The position numbers and the translations under genes are program-made. Shown piece by piece: positions 12,275 through 60,916 of a DNA stretch of 64,000 nt. Source of the stretch: a virus. Lineage: Duplodnaviria; Heunggongvirae; Uroviricota; Caudoviricetes. How positions within the stretch are numbered: the first letter of the stretch is position 1; every line of letters starts with the position of its first letter. The stretch lies in IMG/VR virus record IMGVR_UViG_3300027608_000017. One strand, 5' to 3'. A model generated the notes under the pieces. It saw only the letters and a program-made list of their open reading frames with translations. It did no database searches and had not been told where the DNA came from.

Positions 12275-12456
12275 TCGGTTTGCAATGTGTTGTGAGTGTT
12301 GATGTTGCGGCGAATCTTGGTAGTGAAATCTGACGGCGGGCTGAGACGGTTTTTTGGAGTGGTGAGACGCTTTCGGATGCAGCGGAAATTTGCCCGCAAC
12401 ATCCCGCAGCATCCCGCAATTTGTCCGCACAACATCCCGCAGCCAGTTGACTCGCC

Positions 12457-33990: not shown

Positions 33991-34557
33991 TCAGGCAACG
34001 TCCAGCATCCGGCGGATTTGGCAACGCGCGCTGAGCGACCGGCGCTTGACCTCCGAGAGATGGCACAGCACGCTCTCCGAAATCTCGCGCAACTGCTCTC
34101 CGCAACAGAATCGCCACAACGCTTCTGATTGTCTTTCAGGGAGTCGGGACAGGCACCCCTTGGCTCGACTCACGTCCTCGGCGACAATCGCGGCCTCCAG
34201 CGGATTGGCCTCGCGCGACTCGAACAGCGACACGAAATCCTCCTCATCCTCGCGGCCACCGCTCGGGCCAGAGAGAGTCTCGGGGTGTCGCTGCCGCGCA
34301 CGACACAAATCGGCAATCCGGTTTCTCGCGATCCGCCGGACCCACGGCCGAAACGCCCTGCCCGGCTCGAACGTGTGCCGTCTGGCCACGACTCGCAACA
34401 GGACTTCGGAAGTCAGATCATCCGCGTCATTGTGGTTCAGGCCGTGTCCGCGCGCCAGTGAGTGGATGATCGACGACGCGAGGGGATGCAGCGCGGTGAA
34501 CGCCGCATCATCACCATCGCGGTATCGCGACATGAGATCGTCTTCGGGGTGCGTCAT
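33991..34557 (-). CDS. ECF-type RNA polymerase sigma-70 factor
   Basis: Region 2 (DLTSEVLLRVVARRHTFEPGRAFRPWVRRIARNRIADL) and region 4 (LSRLPERQSEALWRFCCGEQLREI). Confidence 0.75.
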   Translation of the reverse strand: MTHPEDDLMSRYRDGDDAAFTALHPLASSIIHSLARGHGLNHNDADDLTSEVLLRVVARRHTFEPGRAFRPWVRRIARNRIADLCRARQRHPETLSGPSGGREDEEDFVSLFESREANPLEAAIVAEDVSRAKGCLSRLPERQSEALWRFCCGEQLREISESVLCHLSEVKRRSLSARCQIRRMLDVA

Positions 34558-40500: not shown

Positions 40501-43500
40501 CATGACGAACGAGCCGCAGCATCGAAGCTCCACGGCGAGTTGAGTCAGTACGATGGCGAGCCTGCGCAGCCGAGCAAGGCCCGCGCGAAGGCGATGGCGA
40601 GTCAGCAGGCCAAGCAGGCAGCGGAGCCGCTCCCCGCCGACATCGCCGAGAAGTACCCGTCGTTGGTGGAGCCGAAGCCAAGCCACAAGCACATCCCTCT
40701 GTACCAGAACCCGCCAAAACGAGAGGGCGATCTCGAAGTTGACCACGACCCCGACTACCATGTGACGCGACACGCCGACAGGCTGAATGACGCAATCACA
40801 GACGCCAAGGAGAGCGGCGGGATAGACGCACCGTCGATCCAGAGCCGACACCGAATCGCCAAGGGGCTGAGTCCCGACGAGATGACGCGGCTCGGCGAGC
40901 ATCTCGGGATCGAAGACACCTCGCCCCGTGGTGTGCAGGAACACATTCAGGCTCAATTGGAAGACGCGATCAGCCAGCACGGACAGAACACCTACGCCGC
41001 CGCCGGATCGAACCCCGGCAATCGCCCAGACGACTCATCGGGAGCAGAACGCCGAGTCAAGGCCGCCGCCGCGAAGCTAGTGGAACTGGACGACAAGCCG
41101 TTCTCGCCGTACTGGCAAGACAAACGATCCGAGGCCAAGAAGGAACTCGCCGCCGCTAAGGACGAGATGAATCGGTCCACGAATGCCGCGCGAGACTCCA
41201 AGCCGGAGGCAGCGAAGCCATTCCGGCCCGAGGCGGTCCCCGGCCAACAGATGGGCATGTTCGGCGAGGAGAGATCGGGACAAAAGCAACTCTTCAACGT
41301 CGTGAAGCCGAAGCGAGGCGACAAGCCGCAAGCTGTCGCGCCGTCAGAATTGGAGAGGATCGGCGACGAGATTGACGCACGTCAGGCGGAACGTCAGCCG
41401 CTGCCGGGGCAGAAGTCGATCGCGGAACCTGAAGATCAAGAAGACGAGAAGACGTTTCCATCGCAATCTGAAGTCGATTTCGCGAAGACTCTAGCCCAAA
41501 AACATGGTTCTCCAGTCTCTCCCGTAACATCAGCAAGCGGGCGACATGAGTTGGCGTCTCGGTTCAGTAACATGCTGGAAAGGGCCGCAGGCAAGTCCAC
41601 AGACGAATTGGAGTTGGAACAAATCCTGTCAGCGGCAAAGGGGAAGACGGATGAGAGCCGCGTTGCATGGGCGATTGCAAACAATCCGCATTCAAGCGAC
41701 GCCGTGTTCGAGAAAGCAAAAGCAAACGAGGCGATGAGGGAGATGTCTCCCGATTCCGCCATCAGCCACCTTGATGCCCGCCGAGCCGAATTGAGGAAGA
41801 ATCGCGGCCTTGCGGCACCATCGCAGTCGATCGAGGAGCAGTACCCGTCGCTGAAGGAGCCACCGGCAGGCGATATCGCCAAGCGAGTCTCGAACGACGA
41901 GTTCGCCGACGGGGACTGGGATCAGGCCCACAGCGGACTCGCCAGCGAAATCGTCCAGTCGAAGATGGTTCAGGGCATGAAGGGGATCGAAGGCCGCGAG
42001 TACGGGATGCGCGAGCATTCCCCCGGCAAGTGGCAGATGGTTTCACGACCGGGCAAGACGGCGGAACAGATCAAACGAGACAAGCCATCAACCCAGCGAG
42101 AAGCAGACGAAGCAGTCGTCTCGTCGAATATGCGATCCAATCTCTTTGATGAAATGAGGGACGAAAAAACGCAGTCGGATCGCAAGGAAAAAGTATCGAA
42201 ATGGAGGGGCCAGTACGCCGATTCGCCGCGAGAGAACATCGCCTCTGGAGACATAGCAAGGCACGACTGGGAAAAGGCTATTCAAAACGGAGTTGCGCCA
42301 GCACGTCTCTCCGAGATGGTTGAAGACGCAATCAGGTCGGGCGCTTTAGACGCCGGTGTCGGGAAGCACCTGAAGGAAAAATTCTCCGTCGAGGAGCAGT
42401 ACCCGTCGCTGAAGGAGCCAGCGGCACCCGAAGGCGCGGATGAGTCGCACTACCGCGACAACCTGAAGGACATAAAGAAACACGCGGCGACTGCTAAGGC
42501 CGTCGCAAACTCAGGCGTCAACGCCGGTCACAGTGTGCAGAAAATGATGTCGGACTTCCGAGATAACGGGATGATGGAGGGGGACGCGCGCCGGACAATT
42601 CTCGACGCATTCGACCGCACGGGTGTCCCTGTCAATCACGGAGACGCGAAGACGGCGGAACCAGCGTCCGTCGATCACAAAGAGGCCGAGCTACTCCGAC
42701 AGCAGATCGCGAAACTGGAGGGACACGCTGAGAAGCTGGACAAGGGCGCGGCGTCACTCAAGGCGAAAGAATACAAGCCGAACAGCGGGCGGATCACGAA
42801 GCTCGACCAGTTCGGCGAAGAGGTGGGAACGCAATCCATCGGCGACGTGAACGAGAGGCGTCGATCAAGGTCGATTGACCTATCGAGCCACCAGTCACAG
42901 GAGAACCGCGAACTCGTCGCGAAGCTCAAGGGGAAACTCGCTGCCACCGAGAAGCGGATCGAGAGGGATGCGCCGTATCAGGACGACGGCAAAACAGAAG
43001 ACGAACTGATGGGCGAATGGCTGAAGGAGACTCACCCGGAGCTGGCAAACAAGTCTCCGAAGGCTGAACCGCCAACTTCCGGCCGAGAGAACAACGCAAA
43101 GATCATCCGCGCCGAGAAGAAAATCTCTGACCTGCGACAGGAGAAGGCGCGGCTCGCGCCGGGCCTGAAGATCCCCCACAAGGCCAGCGAGGCGGAACTC
43201 GGGATCGCGGCTCTCGATGCCAGGATCGCGAAGGCGCAAAAGTCACTGGATCAGGTGAAGGCCGAGTCCGGCTTCAAGTCCGCGCCGGACATCACCGACC
43301 AGTACCCGTCGCTGAAGGAACCGGAAGCGGTGGCGAAGCAGCCTCATGAGATGACAAAGGACGAGTACGTCCGACAGTTGCCGGAAGGTGAAGAATACCA
43401 GCGGCACGCCAAGGAGTGGGCAGCAATTTCCGGCGACAAGGAATTAAGGAGACTGTCAAGGCAGCAAGAGGAACATGGATGGGAGAAGCCTCCCACTTAC

Positions 43501-45510
43501 AGCGACAGGCGTCGCAAGTGGGATACCGACAATAGTCGAATAGAGGCCGCGATTTCATCTAGGGTTGCGTCGCTTGGCCTTCCACCAGAAGCAGAGCCTA
43601 TGGTCAGAGTCCTGACCGTCCGCGAGGCGCAGCACAACAAGGCGATGGTGCAGAACGGGAAGACCCCGGAGCAGCAGTCAATCGACGAGCCGGAAGCGGT
43701 GGCGGATAAAAACGCCAGCACTTCCGCGCAAGTGAGTGCGAAACGATCCACGGCAGAGTTCCTGAAGACGCACAAGGACCAAGTGGCGAAGCGGGCCAAG
43801 AAGAACCCCTCTCCAAAATTCTCCCACGAGGCCGAAGCGGAAGCTGTGGCTCAGAACCGGGCCGCTGCCGATGCGAGGCAAGCCGCCAAGTCCACCGCCG
43901 ACATCACCCAGCAATACCCGTCACTCGCGGAACCGAAGGCGGAAGATTCAGCCGCAACAGAACCGGCACACAAGCAGTACGACATCTACGAAACGCACGC
44001 CAGGAACCACCCCGACGGCGCGAGGACGATGCACGCCGTGGCCATGCGGGAAGACGGCAAGCGAGGATTCGGGGACACGCTCCACAACACCCACGAAGAG
44101 GCGGTCGCACACATTGAACATGCAAAGGTCGCCGCGAAGAACAAGCAGGAGTGGCAGGCCAAGGTTGCGGCCGACGAAGCAGACAAGGAGAAGGCCAAGG
44201 CCGAGAAAAACGACCTCGGCGGCTACGAAAGCACGCTATCTGCCGCCTCAAGAGGCAAGGCCGTCGAGCATCTCGACAAGCTGGCCAGGCTCGACGGGAA
44301 GGATGCCCGCCTCAAGGACCACGTCAAGCGGCTGGTGGAGGCGGGCGAGGTCACGTCCACCCGAGACGAGGACAAGGTGAAGCCGATGACGCGGACGCAG
44401 TTCAACCGCGCCGACAACGCCCAACAAGAAGCCCACGAAAAGAAGATGAAAGCGGGCGGCACGAAGACCAACTACCTGCTCGGCGGCTGGAACGTAGGCA
44501 AGCTGGCCCATGACTACGCGAACCATCTGATCGCCAAGAAGGGGGCCGCTGACATCACGAAGCAATACCCGTCACTGGCGGAACCGAAGGCCAAGGAGCC
44601 GCACGAGATGACGTGGCAGGAGATCAAAGGCGGACACGCCAGCGAACGCGCAGCGATTCCGTCTCAAGTGGCGGCGGCGGAGTCCGAGTACGCACAGGCT
44701 CGATCGGGTTTCGACGCGGAGTCGAAAAAATCAATGGACCGCGTCAGGGCGATTTCCGCCAAGGTGAGACGACTGAATCCCACTGGCGACACTGCGGACA
44801 TCGACTCAGACAGCCAGAAGGCCGTTGAAAAGCTCAAGAGCGAATGGGACACGATCTCGAACAGGCTTCGCGATCAGGAAGCACCGCACCGCAGCGATTT
44901 TGTTGCCGCGCGGATGCCGCAAAGCAAGCTCCCATCTGGACAGCACGAACACCGAACTCTTGTGGCCAAGGCCATCTCGGACGGCAAGATCGCATCGCAC
45001 CCCGATTACCCAGAACTATCCGAAAAGGACGAACAGGAACCCGAGATGAACGGCTGGTCCCCCGAGAACCACGTCAAGGTCGCCGCCGACTCGATCCAGA
45101 AGCTACGCGGCCAAGATGTTCACCGCCTGCTCGACTCAGCACCGCCCGAGGGAATGGAGAAAATGGCGAAGTACATCCTCAAGCACCGGCCAGAACTCGT
45201 GGGCGACATCCGCGACGCCAAGATCGACATTCAGGACGAGCGAGGGCAACAGTTCAGCCGAGAGGAAGAGACCTGCGAGGGCGCGACCTGCTCGCCGCGC
45301 GAAGCCCTCGTCAAATGTCTCCACGAGTGCCTGAACCACGACGGGCAGGCCGACATCGAACACGAGGACACCGACGGCTCGATTGAGTCGATGATCCCCG
45401 CAGACCCGAGCCAGCTTGACCGACACGTAGCGGAAACTATAAGAACTTTCGCGGAAGTTTCACCAAAACTGGCGAAGGCGCTGGCGGCATACCAAGGGGG
45501 ACGATCGTGA
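37543..45510 (+). CDS. giant 2655-aa Glu/Lys/Asp/Ala-rich protein with 7 periodic QYPSL[KVA]EP motifs and N-terminal tandem domains
   Basis: Uninterrupted 7968-nt ORF with protein-like composition throughout; conserved motif block DITxQYPSLxEPxAxEPHEMT recurs. Confidence 0.7.
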   Translation: MPADFLEALAVAAAHYLPEHEFSAMPADLPQTKYTGNKPYTGKLPTGTVGRKVALPPPPLIHGTDAAGYRTSFAPTGGATKAAADPYTGTFGPKPPPPPEMVRLKEPSHSDFQVPFPADAHREHLSGLASIAKSNPAALHRDDHAALLRHFSTQANRFSDRVKRGEKVWQGEADHFQDASRSLSNHMTRQQQFSRRSTPEEIAANEAEPTHIRRLKMPDHKDFHSGYSYGETFHGHVNDMADLAVADPSRIHPDDHPALHHYFGKNLHIKRMGQASKILREHAAKSAESAKKPSPQKPNYRVTFSREETATEFARKAKPAAGQKSMFGDDDDEPSAPAPAPAAQAITPTKAGAGDWDEDLHPRGDHGKWALAESHEPQPNHIHADVRDHEGETMGYLSHPHDGTTNGIRAAHAEAKEGLTSAGHDWSSPHTRWGATDHTGEPRHHISHDGQQLTDVADPRNAQRGPGGFEAPPKKARPAPYPKAPEREDRKAERESAFYPKQAAEPAIPADLAEKYPSLVEPHAAAPEPEQHWYGMHNRPPAIGAIPKGNYDHKPHDEFRHGQISYGRPLTEKEQYDYELTPIRNDSEIPALARGVAERMGPYVAKYLAPGAEKLLNGFLRHGQSAKDLGHVDPEKIKAELRKQHGSTESTPSVAAQEEAPVGKPASDAQEGASDGRESVSNDTLFKRSGQQFEEIQKSLGITKPQMGQQGADAVRKALASRVGGPVIAEMLKVHEHSPDAFARHGFATGTEAYRDSLSGKFSKEQLLDASRFAAGHENGDMSRFVRDSIRGATATDGGVSAEDHARAHQAGSLDRLAKSQGADEAKATKRQADDLMVPSPPASGDANHGSPASSEADSEWNHQHSDQEKGYREQERTFSEVMNDPSKSSLRDLTLAYGQGTHLMRHWDRRAERGEITAQQRDDHNDGMRRELDHISSLQRDYINGRKAAPADDMSRAEKIAEEAYHSKTPLESVARNMGLTKSEWHDERAAASKLHGELSQYDGEPAQPSKARAKAMASQQAKQAAEPLPADIAEKYPSLVEPKPSHKHIPLYQNPPKREGDLEVDHDPDYHVTRHADRLNDAITDAKESGGIDAPSIQSRHRIAKGLSPDEMTRLGEHLGIEDTSPRGVQEHIQAQLEDAISQHGQNTYAAAGSNPGNRPDDSSGAERRVKAAAAKLVELDDKPFSPYWQDKRSEAKKELAAAKDEMNRSTNAARDSKPEAAKPFRPEAVPGQQMGMFGEERSGQKQLFNVVKPKRGDKPQAVAPSELERIGDEIDARQAERQPLPGQKSIAEPEDQEDEKTFPSQSEVDFAKTLAQKHGSPVSPVTSASGRHELASRFSNMLERAAGKSTDELELEQILSAAKGKTDESRVAWAIANNPHSSDAVFEKAKANEAMREMSPDSAISHLDARRAELRKNRGLAAPSQSIEEQYPSLKEPPAGDIAKRVSNDEFADGDWDQAHSGLASEIVQSKMVQGMKGIEGREYGMREHSPGKWQMVSRPGKTAEQIKRDKPSTQREADEAVVSSNMRSNLFDEMRDEKTQSDRKEKVSKWRGQYADSPRENIASGDIARHDWEKAIQNGVAPARLSEMVEDAIRSGALDAGVGKHLKEKFSVEEQYPSLKEPAAPEGADESHYRDNLKDIKKHAATAKAVANSGVNAGHSVQKMMSDFRDNGMMEGDARRTILDAFDRTGVPVNHGDAKTAEPASVDHKEAELLRQQIAKLEGHAEKLDKGAASLKAKEYKPNSGRITKLDQFGEEVGTQSIGDVNERRRSRSIDLSSHQSQENRELVAKLKGKLAATEKRIERDAPYQDDGKTEDELMGEWLKETHPELANKSPKAEPPTSGRENNAKIIRAEKKISDLRQEKARLAPGLKIPHKASEAELGIAALDARIAKAQKSLDQVKAESGFKSAPDITDQYPSLKEPEAVAKQPHEMTKDEYVRQLPEGEEYQRHAKEWAAISGDKELRRLSRQQEEHGWEKPPTYSDRRRKWDTDNSRIEAAISSRVASLGLPPEAEPMVRVLTVREAQHNKAMVQNGKTPEQQSIDEPEAVADKNASTSAQVSAKRSTAEFLKTHKDQVAKRAKKNPSPKFSHEAEAEAVAQNRAAADARQAAKSTADITQQYPSLAEPKAEDSAATEPAHKQYDIYETHARNHPDGARTMHAVAMREDGKRGFGDTLHNTHEEAVAHIEHAKVAAKNKQEWQAKVAADEADKEKAKAEKNDLGGYESTLSAASRGKAVEHLDKLARLDGKDARLKDHVKRLVEAGEVTSTRDEDKVKPMTRTQFNRADNAQQEAHEKKMKAGGTKTNYLLGGWNVGKLAHDYANHLIAKKGAADITKQYPSLAEPKAKEPHEMTWQEIKGGHASERAAIPSQVAAAESEYAQARSGFDAESKKSMDRVRAISAKVRRLNPTGDTADIDSDSQKAVEKLKSEWDTISNRLRDQEAPHRSDFVAARMPQSKLPSGQHEHRTLVAKAISDGKIASHPDYPELSEKDEQEPEMNGWSPENHVKVAADSIQKLRGQDVHRLLDSAPPEGMEKMAKYILKHRPELVGDIRDAKIDIQDERGQQFSREEETCEGATCSPREALVKCLHECLNHDGQADIEHEDTDGSIESMIPADPSQLDRHVAETIRTFAEVSPKLAKALAAYQGGRS

Positions 45511-46291: not shown

Positions 46292-46771
46292 TTGTGGTTC
46301 TACAAGGCCCAGTTCGGCACCTGGCAGGACAAGTTCATCTCGTGGTGGACGGTCGGCCCGTACTCGCATGTGGAACTCGTGTTTCCCGACGGCCGCTGCT
46401 TCTCGTCCAGCCCGCGCGATGACGGCGTCAGGGTGACGCGCATCCCGCCGTCAGATCACTGGACGGTGGTGAAGTTGCCGCAGATGCCCACCAGCCCGGC
46501 AGGCGCTCTCGCCGTGTCGCTGGAGTGCGCCCGATTCATCGGGCGGGGCTACGACTGGCTAGGCTGCTTCGGCTGCTGGACGGGCGTCTCCAGCGTCCAC
46601 GACGGCAACCGCTGGTACTGCTCCGAGATCGTGATTCACATGCTCAATCGGTTCGCCGTCGGCCCGGCGATCCCCGAGCGACTGAATCCCAACAGGCTGT
46701 TCGATCACTTGGCGACAGCAGGTCTTCGCGCCTCAAACCCGTCGGCCAGCACCTGCGCGACGCGCGACTGA
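46292..46771 (+). CDS. possible permuted NlpC/P60-like (His before Cys) hydrolase
   Basis: YSHVELVF...RGYDW...NRWYCSEIV; start codon uncertain (TTG). Confidence 0.3.
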   Translation: MWFYKAQFGTWQDKFISWWTVGPYSHVELVFPDGRCFSSSPRDDGVRVTRIPPSDHWTVVKLPQMPTSPAGALAVSLECARFIGRGYDWLGCFGCWTGVSSVHDGNRWYCSEIVIHMLNRFAVGPAIPERLNPNRLFDHLATAGLRASNPSASTCATRD

Positions 46772-47331
46772 ATCTCGCGATCCCGCAGCGCGAACTCGCC
46801 GTCGAGGATGCAGTTGTAGACGCCGCCCGAGAGATCGACTTCCTCGCCCCGTTCGGCCGAGACCGACAGGATCGCCTCGGCCCATGCCTCGGCCGGGATG
46901 TATTGGTTCGCGAACACATAGGTTGCACCGCCACGGACCAGCACGGCACCGGGTTGCGGGCAGTCTGTCGCGAACTCAGGCACGGCACCACGTTGACCGC
47001 GCGTTCCCTTGCAGGACGCCGGGGCAATCCGCCCGTCCGGCAGCAGCCAGCCCTCGGAACTGTATTCCATGTCGATCGAGCCATCGAAGCCGCCGAACTT
47101 GTAGCAGCGCGTGATCGCCTCAACGCTGTCCTGCATTGGGAAGCCGTCCCAATGGATGTTGACCGAGTTGTAGTCACTTGTGACAGAAAACTTGACGCCG
47201 GGGAATTCACTGGCGAGGCGAGCCTTGACCAACTTGCCCACGTCCTTGGCACTGATGTGAGCGCAGCCGTCGCCGTCTCGGGAATCGCGGGCGGCTTTGA
47301 TGATCTTGGTGATGGCGGGCGAGGGTTTCAT
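46705..47331 (-). CDS. hypothetical protein
   Basis: ATG 47331 (MKPSPAITKII...); first gene of the minus-strand small-gene array. Confidence 0.45.
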   Translation of the reverse strand: MKPSPAITKIIKAARDSRDGDGCAHISAKDVGKLVKARLASEFPGVKFSVTSDYNSVNIHWDGFPMQDSVEAITRCYKFGGFDGSIDMEYSSEGWLLPDGRIAPASCKGTRGQRGAVPEFATDCPQPGAVLVRGGATYVFANQYIPAEAWAEAILSVSAERGEEVDLSGGVYNCILDGEFALRDREIQSRVAQVLADGFEARRPAVAK

Positions 47332-47364
47332 GGTTCGTTTCGTTGTTGGTGGGCCGGTAATCAT

Positions 47365-47545
47365 GGCGACACGCTCAAGCGGAGAGCAGATTCTCAAGTC
47401 GTTCCGCCCAGTAGGTCGCTTCAGGGTCGGTGAACCCCCGCTTGGCAATGCGGAAGATTTCGCACAGCGTGGACGAGACTGGAATCGTTTGCGGCGTCAA
47501 CTCGGCGAGTTCAATGGCGGCTTCGAGTCGTTCGATGGGTGGCAT
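47365..47545 (-). CDS. small hypothetical protein (about 56 aa)
   Basis: MPPIERLEAAIELAELTPQTIP...; below the ORF-track cutoff, fits the strand context. Confidence 0.25.
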
Positions 47546-47592
47546 GGTTCGTTTCGTTCTTTGGGGTAGTGTTGGGATTGCACTGGCCGGGA

Positions 47593-47868
47593 TCAGGCGG
47601 ACGCTATCGCGGCCTCAGTAGCGCGGGCGTTCTCGACAGCCGACTCGAATCCCGTCCAGTCCACGTCGAGAGATTGCAGCGAGTCCCACGCTGGTTCCTG
47701 ACCTTCGGCGTGGACAAGAACTTGCGGCCATTCGCGGATGGCACCGTCAGCAGTCAGCGTCAATTCACCGAGTGTGTCGCGACCGTTCGTCGCGTCTTCG
47801 ACGAGCAGCCCGAGAGAGACGGTCGTTGAATCGACAGTCACCAGCAGCGATTTCCAATTGATCTTCAT
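47593..47868 (-). CDS. hypothetical protein
   Basis: 91 aa; preceded by conserved promoter-like element P1. Confidence 0.45.
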   Translation of the reverse strand: MKINWKSLLVTVDSTTVSLGLLVEDATNGRDTLGELTLTADGAIREWPQVLVHAEGQEPAWDSLQSLDVDWTGFESAVENARATEAAIASA

Positions 47869-47945
47869 CTTCGTTCCCCTTGTTTGAGTTTCGTTCCGTC
47901 ACCACCAAGTGATACCCAAGGCCACCGCGTTGTTAGCGCGAAATC
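47869..47945 (-). promoter_or_regulatory. conserved promoter/leader element P1
   Basis: On the minus strand: GATTTCGCGCTAACAAC-N-GGGTATCACTTGGTGG...AAACTCAAACAAGGGGAACGAAGATG. Confidence 0.5.
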
Positions 47946-48154
47946 TCTACCGGCATCACTTCCGACCAAGTGATGTCACCGCCCGAGTTTGGAGCCTCGG
48001 TTGAGGAGATGAACACAGCCTGACGGTTGCCGAAATCGTCGTACTGGAAGCCTCGATAACGATTCTTGATGCCCCGCACTGGCAGGCGAACCGCTCCGGT
48101 GATTCGCAGGACCATCTCGAAGTCTTCTCGGCTGGATGTTGTGGTCATTTTCAT
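47933..48154 (-). CDS. hypothetical protein
   Basis: 73 aa; the proximal half of the conserved leader is present upstream. Confidence 0.45.
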   Translation of the reverse strand: MKMTTTSSREDFEMVLRITGAVRLPVRGIKNRYRGFQYDDFGNRQAVFISSTEAPNSGGDITWSEVMPVEISR

Positions 48155-48186
48155 GTTCCCTTGTTTGAGTTTCGTTGCGTGCGGAG

Positions 48187-48390
48187 TTACTCGCGAATAG
48201 TCGCGCCGAGTTTTTTGGCGTTGCGGTAGTAGTCGCCATTTCCAAACACGGCATCAGTGACATCGTCGTCATCCATGTCGGGATGCAGCGCCTGCACCTG
48301 TTCGCACAGTTCCACAAATTCTGCCAAATCAGCCTCGGTTGCTTCGTTGCCGAGATGCTCTGTGTCCATGTTGCGGAAGTCAGTCGTCAT
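48187..48390 (-). CDS. small highly acidic protein (67 aa)
   Basis: ATG 48390; the GTG extension in the ORF track is a translation of the conserved leader. Confidence 0.45.
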   Translation of the reverse strand: MTTDFRNMDTEHLGNEATEADLAEFVELCEQVQALHPDMDDDDVTDAVFGNGDYYRNAKKLGATIRE

Positions 48391-48470
48391 TTTCGTTCCC
48401 CGTTTGAGTGTCGTTTCCGTTGCCACCCAGTGATACCCACGGCCACTGAGTTGTTAGCGCGAAATCTGGC
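48391..48470 (-). promoter_or_regulatory. conserved promoter/leader element P2
   Basis: CGCGCTAACAAC-N16-TATCAC ... CTCAAACGGGGAACGAAAATG. Confidence 0.5.
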
Positions 48471-48491
48471 AGAAAATCGGTTAGTCCGAAA

Positions 48492-48800
48492 TCAGACGAA
48501 CCGATCAACCTGCGCGGCATCGAACCCGGCCCGCTTGGCGACGGCCCATGCGGCATCAATGGGCAGGTCCGTTTCCGTCGGCACGTCCGCATCGGGGTCG
48601 AACTCACCGCCGAGGGCTGCGATGGCGTCGATCATGGCTTGATTCGCGTCGTAGAAGTCGTGGGAGGCGCAGCAGCCCGAATACTCGGGCGTCAGGTTGT
48701 GCCGCCGAATCTCGGCCAACTCCTCGGGCTGACACCACTCACTGAGGATGCGGCTGAACTCGCGGGCCAGATCGACCGCCTCGATTGTTGTGTCCGTCAT
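48492..48800 (-). CDS. acidic hypothetical protein
   Basis: 102-aa ORF. Confidence 0.45.
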   Translation of the reverse strand: MTDTTIEAVDLAREFSRILSEWCQPEELAEIRRHNLTPEYSGCCASHDFYDANQAMIDAIAALGGEFDPDADVPTETDLPIDAAWAVAKRAGFDAAQVDRFV

Positions 48801-48803
48801 GAC

Positions 48804-49052
48804 TTACTCCATCAGTTGTTTGATTGTCTTCAGCGGCGCGACCACGCGCCACCGCTTGAGGCCATACGGCTCGACCACGCAGCGCAGATCGAAGCCGATG
48901 GCTGTCAGCCGCTCCATGTCTCGGCGAACGGTCTTGAAATCGCAGCCGCGAGCCGTGGCCATCTGCTCGATGGACTGGCCGCGCCCCCGTAGCAGCGCGA
49001 GGATCGTGAACAGTTGCCGCCAGTGTGCGGCGATAGTCGGTGCCTTGGGCAT
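48804..49052 (-). CDS. winged-helix HTH transcriptional regulator
   Basis: LFTILALLRGRGQSIEQMATARGCDFKTVRRDMERL. Confidence 0.5.
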   Translation of the reverse strand: MPKAPTIAAHWRQLFTILALLRGRGQSIEQMATARGCDFKTVRRDMERLTAIGFDLRCVVEPYGLKRWRVVAPLKTIKQLME

Positions 49053-49091
49053 TACTTGCGACTCCCGTAGTGAAGCGAACCGTTAGTTGTG

Positions 49092-49686
49092 TTACGCAGC
49101 GTCCGTCTCAGGGGACATCAGCACGTCGATGCTCGTATCACCGTTGCAGATACTGTAGATCGGGTCGCCGTCCGTGTAGTGAGGCTCGCCCTCGACGACA
49201 GCCTCGATCAGGATCGCCGCGGCGACGACAGTCTGCTCCGCAGTCAGGCCCATGTCGCGCGCCGATCCCGCGCGGTCGCAGTCCCACCATCCGGCTGACA
49301 TCCACTCGTCGGCCGAGTCGGCGTCGAAATCGGCATCCAGCCAGCCTTGTGCGGCGTCGCGAGCCACGCCGCCCGTGAATGCGTCGCCATGTCGGCTGAC
49401 GGCCGCGATCATCTCGATCAGGGACGCGGGGAGCAGCTCCTCCTCGTCGCCCGTCGTCTCCGGCAGCAGGCCGTTCCACGACTCGAACGGAGTCGGGCCG
49501 CCCTCGTCGATCTCACAGCGGGTGATCGAGAGCGTCAGGTCGCTGCGGTCGTAGGATCGGCAGTAGAGATATCCGTCGTCTGCGTGACAGTAGCTGATCT
49601 CGACCGTTTGTTCGCCATCCTGAGGGAGCATGTGGTAGGTCAGTTTTTCGGCCTGTTCCAGCGTCTTCGTGTTGCTCGTCATCATG
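49092..49686 (-). CDS. acidic hypothetical protein
   Basis: Start at tandem ATGs at 49686; ORF-track upstream extension rejected. Confidence 0.45.
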
Positions 49687-49715
49687 TTCGTGTTCCCTCG
49701 TTCGTGTTTCACTGG

Positions 49716-49739
49716 CCCGCCGCGATGTTGCGGCGGGCT
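49716..49739. other. perfect hairpin GCCCGCCGC-GATGTT-GCGGCGGGC (copy 1)
   Basis: 9-bp GC stem, 6-nt loop; identical copy at 49965. Confidence 0.8.
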
Positions 49740-49753
49740 GCTTGGTTGGTCAC

Positions 49754-49936
49754 TCAGTACGTCACCCATCCGACGTGGGGGATCAGCACAGCGCACAGCT
49801 TGTTGCTGTATTGCACCCACCCGACGTTTCGCACGAGGAAGAACCCGTCACCGTTGTCGTTTGTGGTGTGCATCCCGTCGATGATGTACTTGCCGTTCTG
49901 AGTCGTGGTTGGCGTTTCGAGCATCGTCTTCGTCAT
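49754..49936 (-). CDS. small hypothetical protein
   Basis: 60 aa, leader ...CACGAACAAGGGGAACGAAAATG. Confidence 0.35.
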   Translation of the reverse strand: MTKTMLETPTTTQNGKYIIDGMHTTNDNGDGFFLVRNVGWVQYSNKLCAVLIPHVGWVTY

Positions 49937-49964
49937 TTTCGTTCCCCTTGTTCGTGTGTCACTG

Positions 49965-49988
49965 GCCCGCCGCGATGTTGCGGCGGGC
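49965..49988. other. perfect hairpin GCCCGCCGC-GATGTT-GCGGCGGGC (copy 2)
   Basis: Identical to the copy at 49716; followed by TTTGGTT on the plus strand. Confidence 0.8.
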
Positions 49989-49997
49989 TTTGGTTCT

Positions 49998-50255
49998 TCA
50001 CTCCGTCGTGACGTGAATCACGTCGCGGTCGTGTTCGACGCTGATGATTGTCCCGAGTACAAATTCTGAACACTCCTCAGTGATTTCATGTGAGTCAGTG
50101 CCTGATGCAATGACCGATGTTGTGTAGACGGTCCCTACGTTGTTTCCGTCTTCGTCCGTAACCACGAGTCCGGGTCGCGTTGGATGTTCCATATTTGAGA
50201 TCGTGTAGCTCATCATTTTCGTGTCCCTGTTTGTGTTTCGTTCGTCCGATGGCAC
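49998..50255 (-). CDS. hypothetical protein
   Basis: 85-aa ORF. Confidence 0.4.
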   Translation of the reverse strand: MPSDERNTNRDTKMMSYTISNMEHPTRPGLVVTDEDGNNVGTVYTTSVIASGTDSHEITEECSEFVLGTIISVEHDRDVIHVTTE

Positions 50256-50279
50256 GTGATATTCGCCAAAGTCGGCTTG

Positions 50280-50621
50280 TCAGCGCGGAATATGCACCCC
50301 GCAAGACAATTCGCAGTCGCTCATGTCGTGGTAGCCGAGCGGTCCCGACTTGCGATTCAAATGCCCGAGGCCGACGAGGTAATCAATGGCATCGGACAAC
50401 TCGCCCCGCGTTGGCTTCCATCCGAATGGAGCGAACGCCTTGACCAGATCGCCGCGCTTGATTGTCCCGCCAGCACAGCGGACACCGATCATCACAGTGC
50501 GGGCCAGCTTGCGAACGGCCAGCCGAGCGGATTCGATTTGTTCTTGAGTCATGGTCACGTTCCTTTGGGTTTTGTCGGAGATGATTCGGAATCCGTTGAG
50601 TTGTGAGTCTGTCATTTTCAT
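50280..50621 (-). CDS. hypothetical protein
   Basis: ATG-AAA-ATG start at 50621; leader identical to P1/P2. Confidence 0.45.
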   Translation of the reverse strand: MKMTDSQLNGFRIISDKTQRNVTMTQEQIESARLAVRKLARTVMIGVRCAGGTIKRGDLVKAFAPFGWKPTRGELSDAIDYLVGLGHLNRKSGPLGYHDMSDCELSCGVHIPR

Positions 50622-50695
50622 GTTCCCGCGTTTGAGTTTCGTTTCCGTTGCCACCCAGTGATACCCGCCGCCACCGCGTTGTTAGCGCGAAATCG
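50622..50695 (-). promoter_or_regulatory. conserved promoter/leader element P3
   Basis: CGCGCTAACAACGCGGTGGCGGCGGGTATCACTGGGTGGCAACGGAAACGAAACTCAAACGCGGGAACATGAAAATG. Confidence 0.5.
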
Positions 50696-51014
50696 CTTCG
50701 GTTTCTTCGAGCATCGAGAGCATCCCGCGAACATTGTCGAGTTCAGCGGAGATGGCATCACGGATCGCCACGGCTGCACCCTTGGAACCGTTGCCGTCAG
50801 ACGCTTCCGCAGCGACAGCCTCAGCACGCTCCCGTGTGTAGCTGTTGGCCATCGGCAGACCCCGCACGCTCACGCCCTCGTCCTGTGTGTAGCGAATGAA
50901 TCCGCCGGGGAGTTGCACCACGTAGTTGCAGTCCACAACCGCCGAGGCGTAGGAGTCACGCATCCGCAGGAGATCGTTCAGGGAGTTGTTCAGAGTGGAT
51001 TGGATGTTGTGCAT
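50682..51014 (-). CDS. hypothetical protein
   Basis: 110-aa ORF. Confidence 0.45.
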   Translation of the reverse strand: MHNIQSTLNNSLNDLLRMRDSYASAVVDCNYVVQLPGGFIRYTQDEGVSVRGLPMANSYTRERAEAVAAEASDGNGSKGAAVAIRDAISAELDNVRGMLSMLEETEAISR

Positions 51015-51095
51015 GATTCGTCCTATTTATTCCGCAACCGCGAAGTGCGATTGACTGCCGAACTATACATGTCCCGCCACAGTTGTTAGCGCGGT
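51015..51095 (-). promoter_or_regulatory. conserved promoter element P4 (CTAACA-N16-TATAGT)
   Basis: CGCGCTAACAACTGTGGCGGGACATGTATAGTTCGGCAGTCAATCGCACTTCGCGG; the downstream part matches P5. Confidence 0.5.
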
Positions 51096-51221
51096 TTCTG
51101 GGGGAAAACGCGGAATGCCGGATTCTCAAAAATCGTGATATTTTGCGACCTGACAGCCGCTGACTGGCGAGTAGAGTGTGACGGGACAAGACTGGATGAC
51201 ACGCTAGCACGGGGAACGCAA

Positions 51222-51458
51222 ATGACGAGTCAGAACACGGTGAGCCTGCCAACGATCCGCCGCCAAGCGGAGTCGGTCAGCCCGCACGGTTGGTACGTGA
51301 TCCTGAGTGACGATATCAATCGTTGGAGCAAGACGACTGGCGTCTACGCCACGATTGAGCAGTGCTACGTCGAGGCGAGACAGATCGTGGCGAGGCAATT
51401 CCAGATCCCAGCAGACGCGAGGATCGTCGATTTCCACGGTGAGTGGCCAGTTGCATGA
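51222..51458 (+). CDS. hypothetical protein
   Basis: Internal ATG (MTSQNTV) of ORF 51135..51458. Confidence 0.35.
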   Translation: MTSQNTVSLPTIRRQAESVSPHGWYVILSDDINRWSKTTGVYATIEQCYVEARQIVARQFQIPADARIVDFHGEWPVA

Positions 51459-55195: not shown

Positions 55196-55328
55196 GTAAA
55201 TTTTACTAGGGGGTGTTCTGTGAATCACTACGCTTGAGCCGTTCAATCACCTTGAGATCGGTTAGCCAACACAACCACCCCACCCCCCTTGACAGCCAGC
55301 ATCCGTATAGTGAACATCTGTCCAGTAC

Positions 55329-55945: not shown

Positions 55946-57586
55946 ATGCCTGCTCCGCTCGAATCCTCGCCTGAATTGATAAACGAGCTGGATTTTCTAC
56001 TCGGCAACTGGGATCGACTCACGGACGCGGAGCGGGAGTTTTTAGTCTCCTGTTCTAGGTTCATCGACCGGGGCTACCGCGTCAATAAGTACATGATGGC
56101 AGTGCGGCCGAACCTGTATCCGAAGCAGCAGAAGTTCTTGGGTATGAACGACTTAGAGGTGTATACCGGAGGTTCCGGGGGTGGTGGAAAAAGCGATAGC
56201 CTTCTTCTGGCGGCCCTTCAGTTTGCGGATGTCCCCACGTATTCCGCTGTCGTGTTCCGCTCGACATTCAAGAACCTCAATCGCTCCGGCTCGATCATGG
56301 ACCGTTGCCGGGACTGGCTGCGAGACTCCGACGCCCACTGGGACGGCAATGACTACCGGTTCACGTTCCCCGGCGGCGCGAAGATCGGGTTCGCCTACAT
56401 GGAGTCACTCAAGCACGCGGACCAGCACCGATCGGCAGAGTACGTTTTTTGCGCCTACGACGAGGTGACGGAAATCCCCGAGGAATGCTACCGGTTCCTC
56501 TTCTCGCGTATGCGACGCAACAAGAACGGCCCCGCGATCCCGCTTCGCTGCCGCAGTGCCAGTAACCCCGGAGGGGAACACGCCGCGTGGGTCAAGTCCC
56601 GCTTCATCCCGCCCGAGTATCTGGCGTGCAAGGACAACGACTACCGGTTCAGTCGCGCGTGGGAGAAGTCCGACCCGTGCGGCGACTGTGGCGGGACCGG
56701 GAAGCTCGACGACATCGAGTGCCTGTATTGCGACGGGCTGGGGAAGCAGGTCCGGGTGTTTCTCCCGTCGCGAGTGCAGGACAACCCGGCGCTCGACGCG
56801 AACGAGTACCGCAAGTCCCTGTCACGCATGACGTGGATCGAACGGATGCAGGTCGAACATGGGGACTGGGACATCACTGCCGAGGGTGGCGTCTTCCGCA
56901 TGGCCTGGCTGCGATACTACACCGTCCAAGGGGAGTATCTGCGGCTCACTCGGTTCGATGAACACAACCGCCCGCTGCCGGACGTGATCGTCTCGCGCAG
57001 GGAGGCGATGGTGTTCGTGACGGCGGACACGGCAACCAAGGCCAAGACCAGCGCCGACTACTCGGTGATCGCAACATGGCTGTTTCATAGGGCTACTGGC
57101 TCACTGGCCCTCCTTGACGTAATCCGCAAGAAAGTGGACACTCCCGATCTGTTGCCGCTGTTGTCGGGTGCGTGCCTACAGGCCAAGGCCAAGTTTGTCT
57201 TGATTGAAGAGGCTTCGTCAGGGACGGAACTGATCCAGTTGTTGCGGAAAAACAACGCCTGTATCGGTGGCATCCCGGTCAAGTCGTATCTGACGGGATC
57301 GCTCGACAAGGTGGCACGATCGGCCCCGGCTCAGTTACGGATGGAATCGGGGATGGTCTACTTCCCTGCGTTTGAGACGGCTTGGAAAGCCGAGTGCGTG
57401 GCCGAGTTGCTCTCGTTCCCGAAGTCGGTCAACGACGACTTTGTGGACAACGTGAGCATGGCGGCATGGTACGCCGAGAACCACAACTCGATTCACGTTG
57501 GCGGAAACAACGCCAGCAACCTGCCCTCCGAAATCGGCAGCGGCCCCCTGCTTTCATTCACTCGCAGTTCACTCGATGAGTATTGA
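55946..57586 (+). CDS. terL: terminase large subunit
   Basis: Walker A GGSGGGGKS (compare GGRGSGKS), Walker B YDEV, C-terminal nuclease; inserted Cys pairs CGDCGGTGK...CLYCDGLGK. Confidence 0.85.
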   Translation: MPAPLESSPELINELDFLLGNWDRLTDAEREFLVSCSRFIDRGYRVNKYMMAVRPNLYPKQQKFLGMNDLEVYTGGSGGGGKSDSLLLAALQFADVPTYSAVVFRSTFKNLNRSGSIMDRCRDWLRDSDAHWDGNDYRFTFPGGAKIGFAYMESLKHADQHRSAEYVFCAYDEVTEIPEECYRFLFSRMRRNKNGPAIPLRCRSASNPGGEHAAWVKSRFIPPEYLACKDNDYRFSRAWEKSDPCGDCGGTGKLDDIECLYCDGLGKQVRVFLPSRVQDNPALDANEYRKSLSRMTWIERMQVEHGDWDITAEGGVFRMAWLRYYTVQGEYLRLTRFDEHNRPLPDVIVSRREAMVFVTADTATKAKTSADYSVIATWLFHRATGSLALLDVIRKKVDTPDLLPLLSGACLQAKAKFVLIEEASSGTELIQLLRKNNACIGGIPVKSYLTGSLDKVARSAPAQLRMESGMVYFPAFETAWKAECVAELLSFPKSVNDDFVDNVSMAAWYAENHNSIHVGGNNASNLPSEIGSGPLLSFTRSSLDEY

Positions 57587-60366: not shown

Positions 60367-60822
60367 TCAGAGGTATTCCCATTCGCCGTCCGTCAGTCGC
60401 TCCAATCGCGTGTGGCAACCGGGGCGGACGAGCGTCTTGGCCTGCTGCTCGCGATTCACGGCTGATTCCGGTGTCGCGTCAGCATTGATAACGCCCTCGA
60501 AATTATCGTAGATCACCCGCATCAACTCGTCCGTTTCGTCGTCTCGTTCGGTAATGCGGAATGTTGACAGCGGAAGCGTTGGCTCGACGATCGACCATGT
60601 GACATGCACCAAGTTGTCTTGATCGCTCAAGTCGGCATCAGCCCATTGGTGTCCGTGTTCAATGGCATCCTCGATCAGCTCGTACACCGACTCCGACTCG
60701 TCGTGGTCAGCCGAGAATTGCGCTCCGCAATCGACGATCTTCCCGTCGATTAGCTTGCCACTTCCGGCCCACACCCCGTCCACCGAGATGCTGATTGTCG
60801 TGTAGTTTTCGGTTGTCGTCAT
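60367..60822 (-). CDS. acidic hypothetical protein
   Basis: Start at MTTTENY, preceded by P5. Confidence 0.45.
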   Translation of the reverse strand: MTTTENYTTISISVDGVWAGSGKLIDGKIVDCGAQFSADHDESESVYELIEDAIEHGHQWADADLSDQDNLVHVTWSIVEPTLPLSTFRITERDDETDELMRVIYDNFEGVINADATPESAVNREQQAKTLVRPGCHTRLERLTDGEWEYL

Positions 60823-60912
60823 GGCCGCTTCCTCTGTTCGTGTTCCCGCCACCCGCGAAGTGCGATTGGCTGAGAAACTATACAGTTGGCTCGGCCAATG
60901 TTAGCGCGAAAT
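60823..60912 (-). promoter_or_regulatory. conserved promoter element P5 (CTAACA-N15-TATAGT)
   Basis: GATTTCGCGCTAACATTGGCCGAGCCAACTGTATAGTTTCTCAGCCAATCGCACTTCGCGGGTGGCGGGAACACGAAC. Confidence 0.5.
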
Positions 60913-60916
60913 CTCG

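Follow-up and report, generated by a model that had tools for sequence, protein, structure and literature searches.

The terminal redundancy of the Bacillus phage SPO1 carries host-takeover and early genes with many near-identical strong early promoters, and the morons of lambdoid phages are single insertions. Other phages use asymmetric, phage-specific sequences that exceed a hexamer in length, lie in or close to the -35 region and are repeated in one orientation to transcription: T4 middle promoters combine a MotA box with a -10, and the stoperators of mycobacteriophage L5 are asymmetric repressor sites. The closest described systems are the promoter-early stem-loops (PeSLs) of T4-like phages (Arbiol et al. 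2010, PMC2839356; Comeau et al. 2014, PMC4122927). Each PeSL is a repeated intergenic module of ~70-100 nt that begins at the stop codon of one gene, includes -35 and -10 boxes of the sigma-70 kind, and ends with the ribosome-binding site and ATG of the ORFan behind; the stem-loops vary in position relative to the boxes. PeSLs cluster in a hypervariable region whose small genes have no known function, and junctions of indels and replacements between close relatives fall at the modules.

We analyzed a 64-kb stretch (the window) of an uncultured phage with a GC-rich genome, known from a contig of ~113 kb. Its TerL is at most 32% identical to that of any cultured phage, Gordonia phages being the closest. 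An earlier note on this DNA had described a promoter and leader repeated before small minus-strand genes.

A two-part element recurs upstream of minus-strand genes

The window contains six copies of the element CGCGCT(A/G)ACA-N16-TAT(C/A)(A/G)(C/T). All are intergenic, on the minus strand and co-oriented with the gene behind, and the -10 always lies 40-55 nt upstream of the ATG, so that the distance to the start is kept. Five of them had been reported, as near-identical elements before the starts at 47868, 48390, 50621, 51014 and 60822. The pattern CTAAC-N15-18-GTAT indeed matches the window exactly five times, always on the minus strand and at these genes; shuffled sequences gave ~0.15 copies by chance and none reached five. 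The estimate of at least five copies holds, with a total of six: a profile built from all variants detected a copy that had been missed, P_g3, before the 72-aa gene. Beyond these six, the profile found no match above noise, either in the window or in ~16 kb of the contig flanking it. Exact matches to the 10-mer CGCGCTRACA are limited to these six sites, and one-mismatch matches are at chance level. None of 185,579 reference species genomes gives a true match to the exact 19-base pattern, let alone carries the element as a genome-wide mobile repeat; among metagenome contigs, the sole true match is a close relative of this phage. A search of RNA families matched the element to no known family.

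Alignment of the copies bore out the two leader subtypes proposed earlier. Type I copies (P_A, P_B and P_C, 65-83% identical over 89 nt) have an A/C-rich leader, GGTGGCAACGGAAACGAAACTCAAAC..GGGGAACGAAAATG; in type II copies (P_D and P_E), TATAGT is followed by CAGyCAATCGCACTTCGCGG. P_C (50613..50696) has its -35 block at 50689-50680, the -10 TATCAC at 50663-50658, an unstructured A/C-rich leader and an ATG at 50621 or 50615. The corresponding positions are 48461-48452, 48435-48430 (TATCAC) and ATG 48390 for P_B (48388..48468), and 47940-47931, 47914-47909 (TATCAC) and ATG 47868 for P_A (47866..47947). P_g3 (50214..50294, ATG 50216) is a full, slightly diverged copy, in which the block CGCGCTGACA (50287-50278) is followed by N16, TATCAC (50261-50256) and the leader; a hairpin overlaps its -35 block. 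Several blocks contain the stop codon of the upstream gene, namely the TAA of the 110-aa gene in P_C (C-terminus ..EAISR*), the TAA of the 73-aa gene in P_A (..VEISR*) and a TGA in P_g3 (..VHIPR*). Type I leaders fold about as well as shuffled sequence (z 0 to +1.5); this lack of structure suits translation initiation.

P_D (51012..51100, minus strand) lies in a divergent intergenic region. Its -35 block CGCGCTAACA (51093-51084; hexamer CTAACA at 51089-51084) is followed by a 16-nt spacer, the -10 TATAGT (51067-51062), a 7-bp stem-loop CAATCGC-ACTTC-GCGGTTG (51053-51035) and the ATG at 51014. The divergent partner (51150..51458, plus strand) comprises a promoter-like CTGACA-N16-TAGAGT (51150-51177), preceded by ATTTTGCGAC and followed by the leader GGGGAACGCAAATG, and a 78-aa gene (51222-51458). 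P_E (60820..60915, minus strand), 9.8 kb from the array, has its -35 block at 60908-60899, TATAGT at 60882-60877 and, downstream of the -10, the stem-loop CCAATCGC-ACTTC-GCGGGTGG; it precedes a 151-aa gene (60367-60822, ATG 60822).

Conservation centers on the two boxes

We compared 16 distinct variants from the window and related metagenomic contigs. CGCGCTRACA and TAT are invariant (2 bits per position), and the 16-nt spacer carries 0.09-1.46 bits per position (~0.1 bit at its least conserved positions). A 17th variant, from the relative L021, has a 17-nt spacer. The GATTT upstream of the block is partly conserved. Position 3 of the hexamer alternates between A and G (CTAACA and CTGACA), also between orthologous copies; G is the base of the TTGACA consensus, and another explanation of the alternation is that TAA and TGA are both stop codons. 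GAC replaces AAC in 3 of the 16 variants, one of them orthologous to an AAC copy, and the base before TAT is G in 15 (one copy has ATAT). The paralogues P_D and P_E share both boxes and have entirely different spacers, so selection explains the conservation better than recent copying. Invariant boxes, a fixed spacing and a free spacer are the pattern of a sigma-dependent promoter, and together with the anatomy they favor the earlier reading of the element as a candidate promoter plus leader.

The array consists of small unrelated ORFans

Twelve co-oriented small genes form an array on the minus strand (46705..51014), with products of 110, 113, 72, 60, 197, 82, 102, 67, 73, 91, 56 and 208 aa. 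The proteins are mutually unrelated ORFans, mostly acidic, and none has an assignable function; the 82-aa gene (48804-49052) gives a weak HTH match (HTH_11, E = 3e-4) and the last, 208-aa gene has an LPD29 domain. Their lack of relationship means that gene duplication does not account for the upstream DNA that these genes share. The 113-aa ORF is a 16-codon gene remnant fused to a 90-aa gene. MATETTLKRG, dismissed earlier as an artifact, indeed arises from automatic extension of the ORF to a GTG within the leader, and gene prediction done independently on the source contig places the starts at the ATGs chosen in the earlier note. The description of a cassette-like array is apt for these co-oriented, unrelated phage ORFans. 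The claim of a promoter before every gene fails, however: a full promoter precedes only 5 of the 12 genes, plus the P_E gene outside the array.

The promoter-less gaps contain a hairpin and leader, a leader alone, or almost nothing. Two type III linkers, before the 60-aa gene (49934..49990; hairpin 49988-49965, dG -22 kcal/mol, z = -3.5, leader, ATG 49936) and the 197-aa gene (49683..49740; hairpin 49738-49715, leader, ATG 49685), share the 9-bp GC hairpin GCCCGCCGC-AACATC-GCGGCGGGC. Two independent assemblies break at the linker 49683..49740. The 73-aa gene follows a leader-only linker, ACGAAACTCAAACAAGGGAACATGAAAATG (48152..48186, minus strand). Leader-only starts had been given as 48154, 49936 and 49686; the first two stand, the third is at 49685, and those at 49685 and 49936 also carry the conserved GC hairpin upstream. 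A terminator-like hairpin (48470..48505, minus strand; 14-nt arms, then UUUUCU; z = -2.7) separates the 102-aa gene, downstream of its stop codon, from P_B.

Genes are exchanged behind conserved linkers

Relatives at 83-97% DNA identity carry the same promoter and leader with different genes behind. For instance, P_C precedes six different ORFs in six relatives, in which the upstream 110-aa gene is 85-97% identical. Three contigs share P_g3 and its leader over ~75 nt in near-identical form (few substitutions) but differ from one another beginning at the ATG. A three-gene block of the window is missing from L021, with junctions in the leader. The 56-aa gene (47375-47545, minus strand; 47329..47561 with flanking repeat) is also cleanly missing from L021, and the junction is the 16-nt direct repeat of the leader, AACGAAACGAACCATG, that brackets the gene (47561-47543 and 47347-47329). 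Microhomology is seen at the indel junctions, which lie within the leader near the ribosome-binding site and start codon. Each alternative arrangement was found in more than one independent sample (L021-L026, L027-L031); L020 and L032 are each one short metagenomic contig, and the D promoter of L020 has no -35 block. Judged from these comparisons, gene swaps and indels have their borders at the linkers, which is more informative than the promoter reuse itself. The phage also encodes, on the minus strand, a RecT-like annealing protein (6977-8029) and a YqaJ-like exonuclease (8026-8943), a recombination system able to act on short homologies.

Proposed function and alternative explanations

We consider it probable that these elements are portable promoter-leader linkers of a hypervariable array of small ORFans, similar to PeSLs and read by a sigma-70-type factor of the host. 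A full linker would comprise, in order, the upstream stop codon, often within the -35 hexamer cT(A/G)Aca; the extended -35 block CGCGCTRACA; a free 16-nt spacer; the -10 TAT(C/A/T)(A/G)(C/T); an A/C-rich unstructured leader (type I) or short stem-loop (type II); and, 7 nt upstream of the ATG, a ribosome-binding site of the GGGGA type. Each would start transcription of the gene behind, most likely through the RNA polymerase of the host carrying its primary sigma factor of the sigma-70 type, so that the array would be expressed from several tandem promoters. The interspersed hairpins may be attenuators or RNA-stabilising structures. The comparisons among relatives support a second function: because linkers and leaders repeat, they provide short homologies at gene borders, where recombination would insert, delete or replace whole ORFs with expression signals retained, possibly by the RecT/YqaJ system. 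Promoter activity, start sites and timing are what we infer from these features. The earlier observation is thus confirmed, and its interpretation as a whole is partly supported.

The sequence is compatible with more than one factor reading the boxes. The phage encodes a sigma 13 kb away (33991..34557, minus strand; last of a three-gene operon, 35425->33991), and its earlier assignment as ECF-type is upheld by matches to TIGR02937 (63 bits, cutoff 42.9) and Sigma70_r2 (1.8e-13). ECF promoters are of the AAC-N16/17-CGT type, for example TGAAAC-N16-CGTATA for SigW. Written as GCTAAC-N16-GTAT(C/A), the element can be taken to resemble this scheme, and SigW models are among the NCBIfam matches of the phage sigma. 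The G that nearly always precedes TAT, the type I -10 (TATCAC or TATTAC), which lacks the final T that sigma-70 promoters usually conserve, and the restriction of the family to six sites, unlike the window's other promoter-like site, point the same way; a simple sigma-70 scan did not call the type I copies. It nevertheless seems unlikely that the array is a middle-class regulon expressed after this sigma is made. The hallmark AAC is replaced by GAC in some variants, one copy has ATAT and the -10 is centered on TAT. Moreover, the sigma operon is preceded by TTTACA-N16-TATCAT instead of the repeated element, so that this sigma lacks the autoregulation that ECF sigmas usually have; this promoter-like site is of the same class under a sigma-70 reading. 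P_D also sits in a divergent control region facing a second sigma-70-like site, and type II copies match 9 of 12 positions of the sigma-70 consensus with a 16-nt spacer, a consensus that may not be the host's. We therefore favor host sigma-70-type recognition over the phage ECF sigma as the predicted mode. The invariant 10 nt and partial GATTT exceed the needs of a -35 hexamer, so another factor may bind. The 10-15-nt block (GATTT)CGCGCTRACA could mainly bind a phage-encoded regulator over the -35 region, either an activator replacing -35 recognition, as at a MotA box, or a repressor silencing all copies, like L5 gp71. The conservation is asymmetric and absolute even across spacer-diverged paralogues, the array encodes the small weak-HTH protein, and type II copies have a second conserved segment, containing TTCGCG, downstream of the -10. 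Even so, we regard this as possible but doubtful: no regulator (MotA/AsiA-like or gp71-like) was identified here, the block is partly constrained by coding for the upstream ORF tail and stop, and every block is paired with a correctly spaced -10, giving no stoperator-like distribution. Such a regulator would be compatible with the promoter reading and add to it.

Two further explanations do without a promoter. The similarity might reflect recent duplication or gene conversion, or RNA-level roles alone (translation leaders, processing sites). The identity among P_A, P_B and P_C may indeed stem from recent copying, the proximal leader is reused before genes without -35/-10 boxes, and recombination among copies clearly occurs. 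This is nonetheless quite improbable, since recency would have kept the spacer too, P_D and P_E have nothing in common there, and no plausible transcript of the gene behind would start far enough upstream to include the 5' block. Scarcely credible is a MITE-like mobile element or integron attC-like site serving recombination instead of expression, although the elements lie at cassette borders where relatives differ in gene content and the window encodes a tyrosine integrase (12457-13668). That integrase is 35 kb away, and the copies lack terminal inverted repeats and an attC-like RYYYAAC...GTTRRRY palindrome. Their orientation is always that of the downstream gene, at a fixed distance to the ATG, and the position and microhomology of the junctions point to homologous recombination. 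Together with the reference genomes, these observations largely refute a mobile or attC-like origin.

Comparison with known systems

The portable promoter-leader linkers proposed here resemble the SPO1 modules and the morons in that small accessory or unknown genes (nearly) each have their own host-polymerase promoter, with flanking terminators in some. Promoters of those systems have been mapped experimentally, whereas the present ones are predicted from sequence; gene shuffling is not a defining feature there, and in contrast to the single insertions of morons, one linker family here serves an array. The anatomy of the linkers matches the published PeSL description (PMC2839356) in the features outlined above. 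This phage is not T4-like, however, as judged from its TerL, integrase and RecT, and has six copies compared with ~50 in a T4-like genome. In its GC-rich genome, only a vestigial A/T stretch remains upstream of the -35, the stop codon lies inside the -35 hexamer, and the -35 block is an invariant 10-mer. A stem-loop is near only four of the six copies, the strong hairpins forming separate promoter-less linkers, and the place of the clearest junctions is the leader, near the ribosome-binding site and ATG, and not an AT-rich segment. Promoter and terminator activity of the present modules is putative, as would be any mini-circles. The modules provide a clear new example of a pattern known from T4-like phages, rather than a new principle.

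A promoter-like element repeated before small minus-strand genes

The pattern CTAAC-N15-18-GTAT occurs five times in the window, against 0.15 expected by chance from shuffled sequences. All five occurrences are on the minus strand and lie ahead of the genes starting at 47868, 48390, 50621, 51014 and 60822 (promoters P_A to P_E), where the earlier note had reported at least five near-identical elements. A sixth copy had been missed. We recovered it with a profile (nhmmer) made from every variant collected and run over the window and about 16 kb of flanking contig: this full copy, CGCGCTGACA-N16-TATCAC, stands ahead of a 72-aa gene at 50216 (P_g3). The same search found no further copies in these approximately 80 kb of phage. 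The exact block CGCGCTRACA, which contains the -35 hexamer, is confined to the six sites, and its one-mismatch versions occur at the chance rate.

The six copies read cT(A/G)ACA-N16-TAT(C/A)(A/G)(C/T), and their alignment reproduced the two subtypes previously described. In type I (before 47868, 48390, 50216 and 50621) an A/C-rich leader comes next, and in type II (before 51014 and 60822) the -10 box is TATAGT and is followed by a conserved stem-loop segment. A GGGGA ribosome-binding site lies 7 nt upstream of the ATG. The ATG starts used in the earlier note are also those of third-party gene calls on the source contig, so the apparent N-terminal extension 'MATETTLKRG' is, as the note had held, an artefact of the ORF listing. 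In three of the six copies a stop codon (TAA or TGA) falls inside the -35 hexamer, and the upstream ORFs there end in ..ISR or ..IPR. Only GATTT or GAAAC directly precedes the block, in a region that is otherwise GC-rich. Elsewhere, upstream of the 203-aa gene that precedes the large terminase subunit (TerL) gene (55270-55328, +), TTGACA and TATAGT stand only 11 nt apart (CCTTGACAGCCAGCATCCGTATAGTG); this spacing is too short for a standard promoter, and GTATAGT agrees with the type II -10 element.

Conservation of the boxes and the case against a mobile repeat

We compared 16 distinct variants of the element from the window and related contigs. The ten bases of CGCGCTRACA and the TAT are invariant across them, and G precedes TAT in 15, the remaining copy having ATAT in place of GTAT. 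The spacer is 16 nt long in all 16 and carries little information (about 0.1 bit at the least conserved positions). A 17th variant (on the related contig L021) has a 17-nt spacer and a weakened TACCAC box. Because copies D and E, at a distance of 9.8 kb, have both boxes in common while their spacers share almost nothing, this conservation is not simply due to recent copying. The A/G toggle in the hexamer coincides with the G of TTGACA, and in type II copies 9 of the 12 positions agree with the sigma-70 consensus. An opposite-facing site of the same type (CTGACA-N16-TAGAGT) lies in the P_D intergenic region, and TTTACA-N16-TATCAT is found upstream of the sigma operon (of 35425). Type I leaders have no more structure than shuffled sequence, which suits translation initiation. 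From its sequence, the element is thus probably a promoter with its leader, and the interpretation in the earlier note appears largely right; the sixth copy, the conservation across relatives and the linkers (intergenic stretches with promoter, hairpin or leader) as borders of gene shuffling go beyond it. For transcription, the copies predict six precise starts, 5-9 nt downstream of the TAT boxes (about 51055, 50651, 50249, 48423, 47902 and 60870, minus strand), and they yield a short consensus on which the host sigma and the phage ECF sigma can be compared.

An element repeated in this way could instead be a MITE or another dispersed mobile repeat, or a recombination site similar to the attC of integrons. 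MITEs have terminal inverted repeats and are found in many unrelated contexts. No terminal inverted repeats were found here, and the element has no copies elsewhere in approximately 80 kb of phage. According to the earlier note, a mobile repeat present elsewhere in the host genome would argue against a promoter; across 185,579 species genomes, the exact 19-base pattern gave one chance match (GC 45%, no similarity). On metagenomic contigs, the sole true match of this 19-base pattern belongs to a close relative of this phage. A scan of IMG/VR with a 16-base pattern gave five matches, all by chance and without similarity to the window. Integron cassettes are promoter-less and carry an attC imperfect palindrome, with IntI adjacent. 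The copies here have no RYYYAAC...GTTRRRY palindrome, the only tyrosine recombinase is 35 kb off with no integron integrase nearby, and the cassettes bear promoter-like boxes of their own. We consider a mobile-repeat or integron-like origin highly improbable.

Hairpins as separate linkers

A GC-rich hairpin precedes two genes of the array of small minus-strand genes, at 49965-49988 (-) before gene 49936 and at 49715-49738 (-) before gene 49685. In both cases a 9-bp stem with an invariant AACAUC loop is followed by the shared leader. The hairpin is far stabler than shuffled sequences (dG -22 kcal/mol, z = -3.5) and contains one covarying pair, C-G to U-A with a U-G intermediate. It recurs in four relatives (L015, L027, L028 and L032), one of them distant, and its conservation reaches further out than that of the promoter element. 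On the plus strand a T-rich run comes next, and the whole resembles a terminator for antisense transcription. An attenuator, an RNA stabiliser and a protein-binding site are candidate roles. Two independent Logan assemblies of the same phage (L013 and L014) begin 45-54 nt upstream of the 197-aa gene, both breaking exactly at the hairpin linker, which is consistent with the repeat or with population heterogeneity upstream.

At the promoters themselves, the stem that follows the type II -10 box has 7-8 bp. Over eight sequences its pairing is kept at 94.6% and includes one compensatory change, and its stability does not exceed that of shuffles. P_B has a hairpin with a trailing U-run immediately upstream (z = -2.7), another hairpin overlaps the -35 block of P_g3 (z = -1.95), and no significant stem-loop was found at P_A and P_C. 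The strong hairpins stand as linkers of their own. No Rfam family reached its gathering score for any stem-loop; the two hairpins gave sub-threshold matches, on the opposite strand, to the model of an sRNA, most probably owing to their terminator-like appearance. A repeated palindrome in a more distant relative (L009), TAATTCCGGGAATTA, proved unrelated to the element.

Linkers at the borders of gene exchange

Relatives of the phage were found through homologues of the 110-aa and 197-aa array proteins; they share 83-97% DNA identity and come from several independent samples. The gene content of the array varies between them. For instance, the same P_C promoter precedes six different ORFs across the window and its relatives: a 113-aa ORF in the window, the 197-aa gene in L021-L026, a different small ORF in each of L020, L027 and L028, and a 90-aa ORF in L032. 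Similarly, three contigs differ by only a few substitutions over about 75 nt of P_g3 and its leader and diverge from the ATG on, and L027 and L028 are identical until 8 nt before the ATG and different beyond.

Compared with L021, the window has two extra segments, a three-gene block and a 56-aa gene. These are two clean indels with both junctions in the leader: the block is absent in L021 at a junction within the leader, and the 56-aa gene is flanked by a 16-nt direct repeat, AACGAAACGAACCATG. The window's 113-aa ORF (fusion region 50552-50621, -) is likewise a scar. It begins with 16 codons from the start of a gene of which L032 retains an intact version (86 aa); a leader remnant (AGGAACGTGACCATG) then leads in frame into the 90-aa gene, which L027 and L032 have as a separate gene. 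The main alternative arrangements were each found in five or six samples and are therefore not assembly chimeras; those in L020 and L032, each known from one contig (a short one for L020), need caution. In L020 (907-945, -) a homologue of the 67-aa gene runs straight into the -10 box of the D promoter (TATAGT), with the -35 block missing. This junction creates a 203-aa read-through ORF and involves only about 5 nt of microhomology. It reflects either genuine illegitimate recombination or an error of assembly.

These sequence comparisons are evidence that the linkers mark the borders of gene shuffling. RecT and YqaJ form a system able to recombine short homologies, and the phage's own pair may drive recombination at the linkers. 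The expression signals would double as recombination handles for swapping ORFan genes. The element is absent from TerL relatives at about 70% identity (L008, L009) and from two contigs (L015, L016) whose homologues of the 197-aa protein are 63-68% identical to it, so the distribution of the family is limited to a close clade.

No array gene is related to another. Scans of their proteins against Pfam, PHROG and NCBIfam assigned no function; two proteins fall into PHROGs without a known function, and for one, the 82-aa protein (48804-49052), there is a weak HTH match. The AlphaFold model of the 197-aa protein (pLDDT 71) has a sole structural match, to an uncharacterised protein of an uncultured phage, and no meaningful match in the PDB (TM about 0.15). 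A hypervariable array beside a DarA/LPD-type polyvalent protein is a sensible place to seek anti-defence genes.

Which factor reads the element

On sequence grounds, we favour the host primary sigma factor over the phage ECF sigma (33991-34557, -) as the factor that would read the element. The phage itself encodes this ECF-type sigma, and the element also fits the ECF scheme, AAC-N16-GTAT; moreover, the type I -10 box is without the final T that sigma-70 usually needs. Yet GAC replaces AAC in 3 of the 16 variants (AAC in 13), one copy has ATAT instead of GTAT, and no CGCGCTRACA block is found upstream of the sigma's own operon, where autoregulation would place it. We judge recognition by the ECF sigma to be unlikely. 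The invariant block is longer than a hexamer, which makes an extra phage factor that binds it a live possibility, with a small but appreciable chance. Isolated blocks are absent, however, unlike the situation with stoperator-type repressor sites, and coding constrains part of the block as well, since the end of the upstream ORF (..ISR or ..IPR, in three ORFs) and the stop codon in the hexamer fall within it.

Less probably, CGCGCTRACA would be more than a -35 box and would define a phage-specific regulon, with the ECF sigma or a dedicated activator or repressor as its reader and a possible translational layer of CsrA on the leaders. In that case any ORF recombining behind a linker would fall under that control automatically. 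Recognition of the block by the phage ECF sigma or a dedicated regulator would make the finding somewhat more interesting. In the shared leaders, two GGA motifs are separated by about 19 nt (ACGGA ... GGGGA, the latter at the ribosome-binding site), a spacing that, speculatively, would suit a CsrA dimer. A CsrA homologue starting MLVLTR (Pfam 30 bits against a cutoff of 27) is encoded in the window (5569-5790, -) and in two more distant relatives, L015 (6325-6645) and L016 (2595-2762). T4 RegA shuts off early messages, and control of leaders by the CsrA homologue would resemble this. A sigma-54 reading of TGGCAAC in the leader was dropped by eye, there being no TTGC at the right distance.

The phage lineage

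In reverse complement, the window corresponds to part of k141_691506, a metagenomic contig of 112,953 bp (ENA ERZ27247453), and the same phage was assembled independently in at least two further sequencing runs. The contig is a phage. Its gene products include the large subunit of a terminase, a tyrosine integrase, RecT, YqaJ, DnaB, a homologue of the sliding clamp and an ECF-type sigma, together with giant 'polyvalent' proteins with DarA_C and ART-PolyVal domains. The lineage is GC-rich and comes from lake-type metagenomes. The best match of TerL among cultured phages has ~32% identity at most, the closest being siphoviruses of Gordonia, and a DNA search of cultured phages with the array as query gave zero matches. 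No tRNA was found in the window.

The TerL of the close relative L007 (549-3302) has 917 aa, with an in-frame insertion of ~370 aa in the P-loop region that the window's TerL (55946-57586) does not have. Because it has LAGLIDADG-like motifs and the ending ...THN|S, the insertion is an intein. In the window, a 2655-aa protein with a DarA_C domain (37543-45510, +) shows ..KYPSL(V/K)EP.., encoded by seven or eight repeats dispersed along the gene; in this gene A strongly exceeds T (AT skew up to 0.39). A 499-aa ORF (29187-30686, +) consists mostly of tandem 60-63-nt (20-21-aa) repeats (also 30339-30648), and its neighbours look structural or tail-related. Also amid structural genes, a 512-aa protein (25918-27456, +) has a radical-SAM part at its N terminus together with a class I methyltransferase domain. 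Several closely spaced direct repeats, ACATCCCGCAG / GCATCCCGCA, at about 12,350-12,456 (+), directly upstream of the integrase start (12457-13668), are candidates for arm-type binding sites or may belong to the attachment region.

Comparison with the promoter-early stem-loops of T4-like phages

In the promoter-early stem-loops (PeSLs) of T4-like phages, sigma-70-like boxes stand between an upstream stop codon and an ORFan, whose ribosome-binding site and ATG belong to the module, and the position of the stem-loop varies (PMC2839356). They sit in hyperplastic regions and mediate indels and replacements (PMC2839356; PMC4122927). The linkers described here likewise extend from the upstream stop codon as far as the ribosome-binding site and start codon (ATG) of the ORFan that follows, and repeat intergenic -35 and -10 boxes at promoter spacing, the boxes being invariant and the spacer free. 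As with PeSLs, junctions of indels and replacements between close relatives coincide with the linkers.

There are also clear differences. With a TerL at most 32% identical to those of cultured phages, and with an integrase and RecT, this phage is not a T4-like myovirus. The context is GC-rich, and the AT-rich tract found upstream of the -35 box in PeSLs is absent. In addition, the stop codon lies within the -35 hexamer, a 10-nt block is invariant, the hairpins are partly split off as linkers of their own, the junctions fall in the leader near the ATG, and the copy number is small. By analogy, the linkers would work like PeSLs and form a new instance of that organisation, neither homologous to them nor of the same lineage. 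A PeSL-style organisation is thus seen outside the T4-like phages in which it was defined, in an uncultured, GC-rich, integrase-bearing lineage. It is a clean yet unsurprising example of a known strategy, and changes no general principle.
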